A stretch of DNA of 64,000 bases from an uncultured Chloroflexia bacterium. Lineage in GTDB: Bacteria > Chloroflexota > Dehalococcoidia > DSTF01 > WHTK01. The DNA lies in NCBI GenBank assembly GCA_963732945.1, contig CAVTBL010000017.1:257944-321943 (forward strand), read 5' to 3'. How positions within the stretch are numbered: position 1 is the stretch's first letter; every line of letters starts with the position of its first letter. The notes beneath the pieces were generated by a model that did not search any database, was not told where the DNA came from, and saw nothing but the letters and a program-made list of their open reading frames with translations. Shown here piece after piece: positions 18,565 through 23,565 of the stretch. The translations under genes and the position numbers were made by a program.

Positions 18565-18716
18565 CCCTGCAGGATGATCCCGCAGCTACCGCCGACGCAC
18601 CGCCTTAGACTCGAACCGTCCGGCCCCGCGACGCGATGAACCCTGCCCTCGGAAACAACCGCACCTCGCGGCGTCTGGTTCAGGCCTCGAAGCCTCTTGC
18701 GACAGCGCGATCAGAA
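18565..18716 (-). repeat. ~155-bp composite repeat, full copy, supplying the ABC ATPase stop codon
   Basis: TTC-TGA-TCGCGCTGTCGCAAGAGGCT ... GCGGTAGCTGCGGGATCATCCTGCAGGG. Confidence 0.85.
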
Positions 18717-19550
18717 GACGCGGCCGATCGGCACGATGACCATCTCGATGCCGTCGGGACCGCTCATGATGCGACCCTCGACGCCGAAGACTTCTCGCAG
18801 CGTGTCGGGCGTGAGTACCGACGATGGCGGTCCGTCCTTGTAGATCTCACCGCCTTTCAGCACGACGACCCGGTTCGAGTAGCGTGCCGCCTGGTTGAGG
18901 TCGTGCAGCACCATGACGACCGTGAGGCCGTGCTGGCGGTTGAGGTAACGGATCAGGTCCAGGACCTCGAGCTGATGATTCAGGTCGAGGAAAGTCGTCG
19001 GCTCGTCGAGCAGGAGGACGCGCGGTTGCTGCGCGATCGCCATCGCCAGCCAGACGCGCTGGCGTTCGCCTCCCGAGAGCGTCTGGACCTGGCGCCCGAC
19101 CAGCCCGCCGATGCTGGTCTCGCGAATCGCGGAGTCGACCGCCTCGTCGTCCTCTGGCGTCGGTATGCCGAGGATGCCCTGGTGCGGGCTGCGTCCCATG
19201 CGTACCAGCTCCTCGACCGTGAGGTCGGCCGAGAGCGTCGGGCCCTGCGGCAGCAGCGCCAGACGACGCGCGATCTCTCGCGTCGGCCAGTCGCGCATCG
19301 AGCGGCCGTCCAGGTAGACGACGCCGGAGCGGGGCTTCAGCACTCGCCCGAGCACGCGCAGCAGAGTCGACTTGCCGGAGCCGTTGGGCCCCACCAGCGC
19401 CACGACCTCGCCCTCTGCCACGTCGAGGCTGAGGGCGCGCAGCACCAGCTCTCGCGTCGCCGGATAGCCCGCGTCGAGCGCCTCAGCGCCGAGCTTTCGA
19501 GGTTGCGGTGCTTGCTCTATCGCCATGTCTCGGCTGTTAGCTCCTGGCAT
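18711..19550 (-). CDS. Iron-chelate/cobalamin ABC transporter ATPase (FepC/FecE-like)
   Basis: GPNGSGKS, LSGGERQR, LLLDEPT, LHDLN. Confidence 0.93.
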   Translation of the reverse strand: MPGANSRDMAIEQAPQPRKLGAEALDAGYPATRELVLRALSLDVAEGEVVALVGPNGSGKSTLLRVLGRVLKPRSGVVYLDGRSMRDWPTREIARRLALLPQGPTLSADLTVEELVRMGRSPHQGILGIPTPEDDEAVDSAIRETSIGGLVGRQVQTLSGGERQRVWLAMAIAQQPRVLLLDEPTTFLDLNHQLEVLDLIRYLNRQHGLTVVMVLHDLNQAARYSNRVVVLKGGEIYKDGPPSSVLTPDTLREVFGVEGRIMSGPDGIEMVIVPIGRVF

Positions 19551-19627
19551 TTAGCTTCTGGCCGATGCCTGACCTCGTCCATTCATCTTTGCCGTTTGCC
19601 CGTTTGTCAGTTTCCGCGCGAAGCGCC

Positions 19628-20722
19628 TCAAGCGCGCCGCCGCACGAGCATGATGAACACCGGGCCGCCCATGATCGCCGTCAGAACGCCGACCGGCAGC
19701 TCCTGCGGTGCGAACAGCATGCGCGCCGCCGTGTCCGCCAGCACCAGCAACACCGCTCCGAACAGCGCCGATGTCGGGATTAGCAGACGGTAGTCGTTAC
19801 CCAGCAGCAGGCGCACGAGATGCGGGATGATCAGCCCCACGAAGCCGATCAGCCCTGCGATGCTCACCGCCGCGCTCGCCAGCAAAGCCGCGATGCCGAC
19901 CAGGATGAGCCGCGTGCGCTCGACGTGCTGCCCGAGGCTGGTCGCTACCTCGTCGCCCAGGGTGATGACGTTGAGCTGGCGCGCCATCAGCACCATTGCG
20001 AGGCTGCCGAACACGAAGAACGGCCACAGCAGCAGGAAGTCGTTCCAGTTGCGTCCCAGCAGCCCGCCGATCAGCCAGCGCAACCCGATCTGCGCCGAAA
20101 ACGCCGACGTTACGAGGATCGCCGAGATCACGGCCGTGAGCATCGACGTGACGGCGATCCCCGCCAGCACAAGACGCACCGGCGAGACGCCGCCGCGCCA
20201 CGCCATGAGGTAGGCCACGCCGCCGCCGATCAGGCCGCCGAGGATCGACAGCGGCTGCACGACAGTCGCCGACATCACGGTCGTCCCGAACAGGTGCACG
20301 TGGATATAGGGGTTCGAGAGCTGAGGGAAGAAGACGACGCCCGCTACCGCAACGACGCCGGCGCCGCCCGAGATGCCGAAGATATGCGGGTCGGCCAGCG
20401 GATTGCGCGTCACGCCCTGCAGGATGGCGCCGGACATCGCCAGCATGGCCCCGACCATGGCGCCGATCAGCACGCGCGGCAGACGGATGTCGTTGACGAT
20501 GACGCCGTCGTTGCCCGCGGTCGTGTGGCCGATCAACGCGTCGATAACGGTACCCGGGCTGAGATTGACGGCGCCGACCGCCATGCTAAACACCATGGCC
20601 GCGCACAGCGCGACCACGGCGAGCAGCGGAACGTAGACCTTCCGTCCTAGCGAGAGCCTGGCTCTCCGGACGGGCGGGGCGTCACTTGAATACGTTGGGG
20701 TAGAGGATGCCTGGGAGCTCAT
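19628..20722 (-). CDS. FecCD/BtuC family permease
   Basis: IRLPR, RNPLADP, GLIGFVGLIIPH, ELPVG; start may be slightly downstream. Confidence 0.93.
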   Translation of the reverse strand: MSSQASSTPTYSSDAPPVRRARLSLGRKVYVPLLAVVALCAAMVFSMAVGAVNLSPGTVIDALIGHTTAGNDGVIVNDIRLPRVLIGAMVGAMLAMSGAILQGVTRNPLADPHIFGISGGAGVVAVAGVVFFPQLSNPYIHVHLFGTTVMSATVVQPLSILGGLIGGGVAYLMAWRGGVSPVRLVLAGIAVTSMLTAVISAILVTSAFSAQIGLRWLIGGLLGRNWNDFLLLWPFFVFGSLAMVLMARQLNVITLGDEVATSLGQHVERTRLILVGIAALLASAAVSIAGLIGFVGLIIPHLVRLLLGNDYRLLIPTSALFGAVLLVLADTAARMLFAPQELPVGVLTAIMGGPVFIMLVRRRA

Positions 20723-21731
20723 CGAGGATCTGACTCACCCGCGGCCCGGCCGATTCCAGATAGATGACGCTGTCCACCTCGTGCACGTTGCCGTCCTTCA
20801 CCGCCTTGAGGCTGGACCAACCCGGGGTCTGCGCCAGCAGCTCCGTCGTCTTGGGCGTACCGGGCGGTCCGCCGACGCTGATCCCGATCACGACGTCGGG
20901 GTCGCTCTGGACGATCTTCTCGACGCTGTAATCGGCGAAGCCCGGGAAGCGAAAGTTATCGGGGTCGTTGGCGACCACGTTCTTGCCGCCGAGCAGCTTG
21001 ACCAGGCTACCGAGGTACGAGGTGTCCTTGGCGGCGATGAACTGGCCCGGCCCCGCCGCGACCACGACCAGCACACTCGGGCCGCCGGTCGCCGGGATTT
21101 TTGCCTTGACCGCCGCCAGCTTGTCTTCGAGCTTCTTGGCCTGCGCCTCGCCCTGGTCGGCGTGACCGGTAAGCGCGCCGACCTTGCGCAACCCCGCGGT
21201 CACAGAGTCGAAGGAGTCGACCTTAACGGCGTAGATCGGAATGTTGAGCGACTGCAGATCGGACATCAGGCTCTGGTCGATGATCGCATCGGCGATCAGG
21301 AGGTCCGGCTTCATGGCCGCGATCTTTTCGAAACTCGGCTGGTAGCTGCTGCCGAAGTCCGGCACCGACGTGGCGGCGTCCGGGTAGGTCGCGGAGTTGG
21401 GGCGGCCCACCGGCGTCGCGCCAACCGCGTACATCAGCTCGACAATCGTCGGGCTCAGCGCCACGACGCGCTGCGGGTTCTTCGGCACGGTCACGGAGCG
21501 CCCGAGGTCGTCCTTCGTCAAGTCGATCGACGCCGTGGGAGATGCGGCAGGCGCCGTCGTGGCCGACGCGCCCGTAGCGCCGCTCGATCCGCTGGCCGCG
21601 GCCGCGGTGGTCGGAGCCGGTGCCGGCGTCTTGTCGTTGCTGCTGCCGCCGCAGGCCGCGATTAGCGCCGACAAGAGCAGCACGCAGAGCGTCAGCCCCA
21701 GCAGGCGCCTCACAGATCGACCTCCGCCCAC
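20682..21731 (-). CDS. Iron-chelate/cobalamin ABC substrate-binding lipoprotein
   Basis: Lipobox IAAC, DDLGRSVTVP..PQRVVAL, EKIAAMKPDL, AGPR. Confidence 0.92.
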   Translation of the reverse strand: MGGGRSVRRLLGLTLCVLLLSALIAACGGSSNDKTPAPAPTTAAAASGSSGATGASATTAPAASPTASIDLTKDDLGRSVTVPKNPQRVVALSPTIVELMYAVGATPVGRPNSATYPDAATSVPDFGSSYQPSFEKIAAMKPDLLIADAIIDQSLMSDLQSLNIPIYAVKVDSFDSVTAGLRKVGALTGHADQGEAQAKKLEDKLAAVKAKIPATGGPSVLVVVAAGPGQFIAAKDTSYLGSLVKLLGGKNVVANDPDNFRFPGFADYSVEKIVQSDPDVVIGISVGGPPGTPKTTELLAQTPGWSSLKAVKDGNVHEVDSVIYLESAGPRVSQILDELPGILYPNVFK

Positions 21732-22413: not shown

Positions 22414-22674
22414 GACGCGACTCTAGATTCAACGCGGCGTAGTGGCAACGACGTAGGTCTGCTCGCGACGCAGCAGCAGCACCGTCTTTGCGAGGTCCGG
22501 CGTCGAGCCGGGCCGTGGCTCTCTATACGCTGCGTCTCTATGTTCAACGCCACGTATGGCAACGACGTGCGATTGCTTCGCTCCGCTCGCAAAGACGGTG
22601 GGAGGCGACACGCGGCCATGATCCAACAGGGTTGTCTCGTGCAATAGGGCCGTCGTCTCGGACCGACGCGCCGA

Positions 22675-23490
22675 CTACACGATGGGCGTGTCGTCCCGGT
22701 TGCCCCAGTCGCCGAAGGAGCCGTCGTAGTCGCGAACGTTCTCGAAGCCCAGGAGCCGCAGAGTCAGCGCAGACTGCGCTGCACGAATGCCACCCTGTCA
22801 AACAGTGATTATCTGTTTTTCCGGCGTGATGCCGCAGGCCGCCAGCTGCTCCCTGAGATCGTCGGCAGACTTCCAGCGCTTGAGCTCATCTGTCGTCAGG
22901 TTGTTGGTCCACTCGAGGTGCACGGCGCCGGGCATGTGGCCCTGGCGCTTATTGCCGCGAGAGTTGGTGCCGTTCCACTCTGCGTCGCTGCGCACGTCCC
23001 AGACCACGACGTTGGGGTCGTCCAGGTGCTCCATCACGTACTCGGCGGTGGCGCGCATCGACTCGTCGGCCTGCGGCGTGAAGGGCTGAGCCGCGGCCGG
23101 CCGGGTCACCGCCATCGTCAGCGGCCGGCCTTCAGCGAGCCACTGGTTCCAGCCGCCGTTCAGCACCCGCACGTTGGTGTGGCCGTAGTAGTTGAGGCAC
23201 CACCAGAGGCGTCCCGCCGTCGTGCCGGCCGCATCGTAGGCAACGACGAGCGTGTCGTCGCCGATGCCGAGGTCGGCCATTGCTTTGGCGAACTGCTCCG
23301 GCTGCATGATGAATCGGCGGTCGTCAGGGTTCTTGAAGTAGTGGTCGGACGGGTTGACCGCGCCGGGGATGTGGACGCGCCGGAAGGCGTCCGGCAGGTC
23401 GCAGTCCACGATGCGAAGGTTTGGGTCGTTAAGGTGCTCCTGCAGCCAGTCGCCCTCGACCAGCAGCTCGCCCCGCGGGTAGTCGGCCAT
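22675..23490 (-). CDS. Tandem-rhodanese sulfurtransferase, predicted selenoprotein (Sec231), 271 aa
   Basis: HIPGA and GHMPGA motifs. TGA at 22800-22798 reads through as IITV-U-QGGIRAAQSALTLRLLGFENVRDYDGSFGDWGNRDDTPIV to TAG at 22677-22675. Confidence 0.9.
22759..22800 (-). promoter_or_regulatory. Bacterial SECIS element
   Basis: UGA CAGGGU GGCAUUCGUG CAGCGC AGUCU GCGCUG ACUCUG: lower stem CAGGGU/ACUCUG, upper stem CAGCGC/GCGCUG, apical GU about 24 nt after the UGA. Confidence 0.8.
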
Positions 23491-23565
23491 CTCGTTCCTC
23501 CTGTTCGACTGCGCCCATTCTAGAGGTGGCGCGCAATCGCGACCAGCGGTTCGCCCGAATCGCGG

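Follow-up and report, generated by a model that had tools for sequence, protein, structure and literature searches.

A two-domain rhodanese gene from an uncultured Dehalococcoidia bacterium with a probable selenocysteine codon at its catalytic position

The stretch analyzed here (hereafter the window) comprises 64,000 nt of contig CAVTBL010000017.1 from an uncultured Chloroflexota bacterium of a Dehalococcoidia genus, whose assembly consists of 17 contigs, totals 3.17 Mb and is 83.2% complete. A minus-strand gene in the window encodes a sulfurtransferase of the rhodanese type whose called reading frame ends at a TGA. Comparison with relatives makes it very probable (roughly 0.9) that this is a genuine selenoprotein gene, in which the TGA specifies selenocysteine (Sec) as the catalytic residue of a 271-residue, two-domain enzyme. 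The original prediction of a Sec-containing sulfurtransferase is supported by the TGA column in an alignment of homologues, by a hairpin with an apical GUC, by selection on the codons that follow the TGA, and by four other genes with in-frame TGAs in the same genome.

The reading frame and its active site

The open reading frame (ORF) occupies positions 23490..22798 of the minus strand, with an ATG at 23490-23488, 230 codons and then the TGA at 22800-22798. Beyond this codon the frame stays open for 40 more codons and ends at a TAG at 22677-22675. The prediction had placed the TGA exactly on the column of the catalytic Cys with the frame continuing past it, and both the coordinates and the sequence bear this out. 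When the TGA is read as U, the product is 271 residues long with U at 231 and continues U-QGGIRAAQSAL...YDGSFGDWGNRDDTPIV. The residues around U231 in this product are ...PEKQIITV-U-QGGIRAAQSALTLRLLGFENVRDYDGSFGDWGNRDDTPIV and its C-terminal peptide is ...DYDGSFGDWGNR.

The 271-residue product has two tandem rhodanese stretches (Pfam PF00581, E 5.6e-41, 139.6 bits). Residues 4-270 align with the solved rhodanese 1UAR of Thermus thermophilus (E 3e-47) and residues 3-270 with 1E0C, the RhdA protein of Azotobacter vinelandii (E 6.6e-42). In both alignments U231 falls on the Cys that heads the six-residue active-site loop (CRIAERS in 1UAR and CQTHHRS in 1E0C); the loop Cys of 1E0C is the catalytic Cys230 of RhdA. 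Together with 3HZU (Mycobacterium SseA) and 1URH (Escherichia coli SseA), these two Cys enzymes share the two-domain architecture, the catalytic position and the C-terminal motif of the window's product, and all four align with it from end to end (E 3e-47 to 1.4e-31). They differ from it in having Cys rather than Sec, and their loops read RIAER (1UAR) and QTHHR (1E0C) where the window's gene has QGGIR. Judged by its sequence, the gene is a two-domain rhodanese of the thiosulfate sulfurtransferase/mercaptopyruvate sulfurtransferase (TST/MST) type with Sec heading the six-residue loop of the C-terminal domain. Termination at the TGA would leave a product with none of the catalytic loop and with the final 40 domain residues missing. 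The loop differs from the CG[ST]GVT motif of MSTs, and its U-x-x-G-x-R form is closer to the TST type than to the MST type. The gene is not an SseA orthologue, because the SseA equivalog model NF008557 gave 133.6 bits against a cut-off of 250.

The 40 codons past the TGA are, on codon-level comparison, under purifying selection. Their omega was 0.07-0.25, compared with 0.27-0.54 for the upstream codons, in six pairwise comparisons of Sec-form orthologues. The TGA itself is covered with 0 differences by contigs of two independent DNA runs labelled soil metagenome (X1 and X2), one of which may be the source sample, and neither has the TGC or TGT that a misread codon would imply. A contig from a metatranscriptomic library (X20), 92% alike, also spans the TGA and the tail; its TGA is unchanged and its four tail differences are all at third codon positions, although an origin in an RNA library is no proof of transcription. 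Parts of the stretch to which no contig of these runs aligns are uninformative.

Codon alternation, hairpins and other in-frame TGAs

We searched 41 related genomes, reading through stops, and kept high-scoring segment pairs that covered >200 query residues. Removal of duplicates (among them L068-L071) and of short fragments (the pieces at our loci L023, L037 and L070) gave a set of 45 genes. At the U231 column, 24 of the 45 have TGA and 21 have TGC or TGT, and many homologues have exactly one internal TGA. The TGA forms make up four paralogue classes at 35-75% identity: orthologues (class 1, 64-75% identity, TVUQGGIRAAQSAL), a tandem paralogue (class 2, about 55%), and two more distant groups reading CYUQGGGRSAVA (class 3, about 40%) and TYUGGGARAGLAAL (class 4, about 35%). 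A further 80 public loci, titled mostly as Dehalococcoidia or Chloroflexota metagenome-assembled genomes (MAGs), with Acidobacteriota and others more distant, gave 101 aligned matches, 62 with TGA and 39 with a Cys codon at this column. In a quick maximum-likelihood tree of 43 rows (two rows <250 aa were dropped), five changes between Sec and Cys are needed and at least four are forced by well-supported branches. The window's Sec form is sister to a Cys (TGT) form of a congener. Genomes of the genus hold up to four Sec-rhodanese paralogues, and congener G015 has four. In four congeners (L019, L020, L022 and L027) the tandem paralogue, at ~55% identity, immediately follows the orthologue and has a hairpin that is almost identical; there is no tandem copy in the window.

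The prediction had also proposed that a hairpin after the UGA serves as a selenocysteine insertion sequence (SECIS) and that it resembles the element of E. coli fdhF. Such a hairpin is present: an apical stem CAGCGCA / UGCGCUG with the loop GUC, set inside a longer imperfect helix. The likeness to fdhF holds as well, the K-12 gene having TGA + 15 nt + GCAGGTCTGC and the window's gene TGA + 20 nt + GCAGTCTGC. Both hairpins lie within coding sequence just after the UGA and share an almost identical apical GCAG-GUC-UGC. The GUC is 22 nt from the U of UGA in fdhF and 26 nt here, and the window's element differs further in its perfect 7-bp upper stem, its 3-nt loop and the absence of a bulged U. 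Binding of SelB to it is predicted by analogy.

Across the homologues, a hairpin of at least 4 bp around GUC, 20-26 nt from the U of UGA, follows the TGA in 24/24 TGA forms and is found in 0/21 Cys forms, a count that has to be read knowing that the criterion was defined post hoc, once the TGA forms had been inspected, and that the 24 related sequences amount to about four independent hairpins. Alternation of Cys and TGA at the column, together with a conserved hairpin, is what the original prediction called for. The stems vary by class (CAGCGCA/UGCGCUG; CGGC-GGUC-GCCG; GGCGAGG-GUC-CCUCGCC; GCGG-GUC-UCGC), with the four inner base pairs canonical in all 24 TGA forms and with 3-4 pair types at positions 1-2 across classes. 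The hairpin bases double as codons for the helix that follows the active-site loop, which accounts for a difference between the proteins: AAQSAL in Sec orthologues against AAQAAF, ASQAAM and similar in Cys orthologues. A different hairpin, CCGUGC-GGC-GCACGG, is used by many of the 80 public loci. It starts 11 nt after the UGA, is encoded by I-R-A-A-H-G, and accompanies a TGA at the same column in loci titled as Dehalococcoidia, Chloroflexota or SAR202 MAGs (L113-L151), where two Sec paralogues often lie within 2 kb.

Other genes of the assembly also have in-frame TGAs. A first genome scan for the SECIS pattern (TGA, GUC hairpin and a GC3 filter) gave eight matches, mostly in spurious frames, with the rhodanese alone convincing, and was set aside. 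The scan that replaced it used a codon-position filter for TGAs flanked by coding sequence and returned 30 candidates, five of which are at UxxC/UxxG-type sites: the rhodanese and four others. The remaining 25 look, by eye, like neighbouring genes that share a frame, or like shadow frames; the four additional genes were the ones tested against Pfam and NCBIfam. Three of them (L097, L098 and L099) belong to the UGSC family, with the TGA in the motifs U-GSC, U-GTC and U-STC; the fourth is PrdB/GrdB-like (Table 1). A hairpin follows the TGA in each. In the two longer UGSC genes the family domain is the N-terminal part of a protein of ~600 aa, whose C-terminal ~400 residues match nothing in Pfam or NCBIfam. 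With five such genes kept intact, the organism almost certainly decodes Sec. On these sequence features the genus makes use of selenocysteine, for which this genome has at least five genes, and the rhodaneses are the most duplicated of its selenoproteins.

Selenocysteine machinery and alternative readings

In the mechanism that we propose, the UGA at 22800-22798 would be decoded as Sec during translation. If the analogy with E. coli fdhF holds, a SelB-type elongation factor loaded with Sec-tRNA(Sec) would bind the hairpin at 22781-22765 through its apical GUC loop and deliver the charged tRNA to the ribosome. The Sec machinery needed for this is assumed to lie within the ~17% of the genome that is missing from the assembly. 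The enzyme would then most likely follow the usual double displacement of rhodaneses, in which the selenolate of U231, in the loop U-Q-G-G-I-R, takes a sulfane sulfur from thiosulfate or some similar donor and the resulting Se-S(-) intermediate passes the sulfur to a thiophilic acceptor; we infer the donor, the acceptor and the cellular role. Sec has a lower pKa than Cys and is a better leaving group. A more speculative and, in our judgment, rather unlikely extension is that the Sec paralogues are not simple upgrades of Cys enzymes and form a dedicated chalcogen relay with Se-S or Se-Se intermediates, which might mobilize selenium for SelD or move sulfur between paralogues. If true, this would be a rhodanese chemistry never examined, performed by up to four paralogues in a genome, some of them tandem copies and every one equipped with a separate SECIS.

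Several results weigh against decoding of the TGA as Sec. The folding energy of the 71-nt region after it is unexceptional for DNA of 65% G+C (z = -0.39, with 65/200 shuffles equally good), and the region from +9 to +51 is equally stable in Sec and Cys forms (-14.1 vs -13.3 kcal/mol). With that z value, energy alone is no evidence for the hairpin. Folding energy was dropped as SECIS evidence in favour of the specific GUC hairpin, as shuffled sequences and Cys forms fold alike, and the comparative data carry the case. There was also no Rfam match in the window at the gathering score, nor at E <= 10 on positions 22600-22900. The weak point is the machinery itself, since the search for selA, selB, selC and selD that the original prediction asked for succeeded in the genus and failed in this assembly. 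Hidden Markov model (HMM) searches of the assembly came up empty for selA (best score 25.7 bits), for selD (51.6 bits against a cut-off of 125) and for selB. The best match to the selB model was a 399-aa open frame with 182.5 bits (cut-off 242) over the GTPase part only, and by its length we take it to be EF-Tu. There was no tRNA-Sec, the best covariance-model matches being tRNA-Ser, tRNA-Leu, tRNA-Gly and tRNA-Arg, and tblastn with congener SelA, SelB and SelD detected no pseudogene remnants down to E 10. ARAGORN reported no tRNA with a UCA anticodon. It did call a 98-nt tRNA-Ser(ACU) whose acceptor stem has 8 bp and whose variable arm is long. Considered as a tRNA-Sec or allo-tRNA, this call (L181 490-587; G000:C10:76789-76886, minus strand) was rejected as most likely a false positive, since long ORFs enclose it and Rfam gave no match at E <= 1. 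Finally, a PrdB-like selenoprotein gene adjoins selD in three congeners, and its homologue in this assembly is mid-contig with other neighbours, so the sel cluster has not simply been cut off at that spot.

In the genus as a whole the machinery is common. Both selA and selD occur in 15/17 congeners, selB and tRNA-Sec in 5/5 congeners tested, and 13/15 of the sel-bearing congeners have at least one TGA rhodanese. The two congeners without selA and selD (G008, 93% complete, and one of 74% completeness) have Cys rhodaneses only, and neither gave a match to the UGSC or PrdB-like queries. In six congeners (G002, G004, G005, G007, G011 and G016) selD and selA are on one contig within about 3 to 10 kb, and all four sel genes lie within about 5 kb in G004 and about 40 kb in G014. 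With the genes clustered in this way, one missing stretch could remove the whole set. Essential genes are absent from the assembly too, which is 83.2% complete and in which the tRNAs for Asn, Cys, Gln and Trp are missing. Synteny does not separate deletion from missing sequence at the sel locus, because the gene order is too scrambled, as was seen when 120 kb of G014, 60 kb of G005 and stretches of 40 kb from both G002 and G004 were compared with the assembly by blastn. Two features of the congener genes themselves were observed. In 12/15 of the congeners that have it (e.g. L058-L062), selD contains one in-frame TGA, and in the other three it has no internal stop; the selenophosphate synthetase of the genus is usually itself a selenoprotein. 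In congener G005 the selA match is in two pieces (C3:611827-612917, model positions 1-230 and 272-366), and the gene may be frameshifted or broken in that assembly.

If the machinery had been recently lost, the rhodanese gene would be a relic whose TGA terminates an inactive 230-residue fragment without the catalytic loop. The absence of selA, selB, selC and selD, and even of fragments of them, is what such a loss would leave, G008 documents loss within the genus, and the mid-contig homologue of the selD-neighbouring gene, standing without selD, adds slight weight for a real loss. Yet the sel-less congeners have Cys forms of such genes or no match to them, whereas here five selenoprotein genes with in-frame TGAs, and their hairpins, are all intact. 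Given the incompleteness of the assembly and the clustering of sel genes in most congeners examined, one gap could account for the absence of the set. Purifying selection acts on the tail, but omega would be blind to a loss that happened very recently. We therefore hold the relic to be improbable. Still less credible is that a suppressor or reassigned tRNA reads the UGA as a standard amino acid (Cys, Trp or Gly). The missing tRNA-Sec would be in keeping with this, and Cys would be functional at the site, as its presence in 21/45 homologues indicates, but no UCA-anticodon tRNA was found, TGA is the ordinary stop of many well-supported window genes (e.g. at 20682, 19628 and 18711), the in-frame TGAs found genome-wide are at known Sec positions of selenoprotein families, and congeners have the full Sec system.

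About equally remote is the view that the 230-residue product is the intended one, or that Sec insertion competes with termination at the UGA, with the short form serving a separate function. Bacterial Sec insertion is known to be inefficient, and 230-aa calls are numerous in databases, but those calls are the output of gene callers and not protein evidence. The short product would have to act without the catalytic loop and the last 40 domain residues, and the tail that it would not contain is conserved and selected. An error of sequencing or assembly, with TGC or TGT misread as TGA, has nothing in its favour and is negligible given the TGA at this column in 24 relatives and in 62 matches from other public loci, besides the contigs of two runs that cover it with 0 differences. 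Decoding of the TGA as Sec in a full-length sulfurtransferase is the reading that we prefer.

Known families, annotation and surroundings

Sec rhodaneses had been stated to have been predicted before, and the literature agrees. A Sargasso Sea study (Zhang, Fomenko & Gladyshev 2005) lists 'Rhodanese-related sulfurtransferase, COG2897' among new selenoprotein families and shows its SECIS (PMC1088965), and a study of the Olavius symbionts (Zhang & Gladyshev 2007) counts 'Sulfurtransferase COG2897' among the known families that have Cys homologues (PMC1976440). In a 2026 review five rhodanese selenoprotein forms are distinguished, of which form 4, '(rhodanese-related sulfurtransferase) UxxG', is credited to reference 59 (PMC13188914); we take this to be the Sargasso Sea study because neighbouring rows of the table name that metagenome. 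A 2022 review sets the single-domain forms of COG0607 apart (PMC9312934). By motif, domain type and description, the window's gene fits form 4 and would belong to the COG2897 sulfurtransferase selenoprotein family. As far as the descriptions in these sources go, the two agree in a Sec that opens the UxxG motif (U-Q-G-G in this gene), in having Cys homologues and in a stem-loop whose small apical loop contains a G, and they differ in origin, the family being known from marine and symbiont metagenomes and the window's gene coming from a soil-type Dehalococcoidia lineage. The passages on COG2897 in these papers (PMC1088965, PMC1976440, PMC13188914) make no mention of up to four Sec paralogues in one genome. 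Another family, NF041203 (rhodanese-related (seleno)protein, LYCAU type; 'form 3', CxU), likewise has a rhodanese domain with Sec but is single-domain. Its model gave 45 bits against a cut-off of 115, over residues 138-181 only, and the motif here is UxxG and not CxU; on this comparison the gene is not a member.

To a selenoprotein specialist the gene itself is expected and not surprising, as its family has been predicted since 2005. Within the literature library searched, no paper named a Sec-containing rhodanese or sulfurtransferase and none dealt with Chloroflexi sulfurtransferase selenoproteins of this kind; bench work on such an enzyme appears not to exist. Since no literature on a Sec rhodanese was found there, a Sec/Cys pair as closely related as this one offers a natural system in which to examine what sulfur transfer gains from selenium. 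The more immediate consequence is for annotation, in which the real product would be a 271-residue selenoenzyme and not a 230-residue fragment without an active site. That pipelines would call the gene truncated proved right well beyond the window. Among the best 120 database homologues, 47 are <240 aa, and 44 of these 47 end ...[IV][IV]T[VL] right before the Sec column; the remaining 73 are full length with C-Q-[GA]-G. The same truncation error thus hits a large share of the family's database entries.

Table 1. Positions of the rhodanese gene and its elements in the window, and of the other in-frame-TGA genes on their own contigs (G, C and L are our handles for genomes, contigs and loci)
Feature	Position	Strand	Basis or remark
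Shine-Dalgarno-like GGAGGA	23496..23501	minus	5 nt upstream of ATG; read from sequence
Codons 1-230 of the sulfurtransferase	22801..23490	minus	N-terminal rhodanese domain and most of the C-terminal one; 230-aa product of gene callers
C-terminal catalytic rhodanese domain, residues 148-263, spanning the TGA	22702..23049	minus	Pfam PF00581, best stretch
TGA as predicted selenocysteine U231, first residue of active-site loop U-QGGIR	22798..22800	minus	Alignment with 1UAR and 1E0C; relatives; contigs
Codons 232-271: remaining catalytic loop, next helix, C-terminal YDGSFGDWG motif	22678..22797	minus	Open frame; omega
True stop TAG	22675..22677	minus	Sequence
Apical SECIS-like hairpin CAGCGCA-GUC-UGCGCUG	22765..22781	minus	Within codons for A-A-Q-S-A-L; G of GUC 26 nt from U of UGA
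Extended imperfect helix enclosing the apical hairpin	22750..22797	minus	Centroid structure; extent uncertain, no better than shuffles
UGSC-family gene (of the U-GSC/U-GTC/U-STC set)	L097, G000:C4:27956-28504		NF041046, 155.9 bits (cut-off 125)
UGSC-domain fusion gene	L098, G000:C10:36455-38329		PF24696; 79 and 76 bits in the two fusion genes
UGSC-domain fusion gene	L099, G000:C10:209267-210985		PF24696; scores as in the row above
PrdB/GrdB-like gene, LVPV-U-PLCTR	L096, G000:C4:88901-90580; TGA C4:89683	minus	TIGR04483, E 1.5e-29; PF07355, 46 bits

The neighbours of the rhodanese gene encode a pseudouridine synthase, a DUF2568 protein, an iron/B12-type ABC transporter and a beta-ketoacyl synthase, and some of them are syntenic in congeners. 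The neighbourhood was considered as a clue to function and set aside, no neighbour being informative on the substrate. The transporter, of the iron-siderophore/B12 type (Peripla_BP_2, FecCD and ABC_tran), occupies 18711-21731 of the minus strand, downstream of the rhodanese and DUF2568 genes, and the gene for its binding protein is syntenic with the rhodanese in several congeners.

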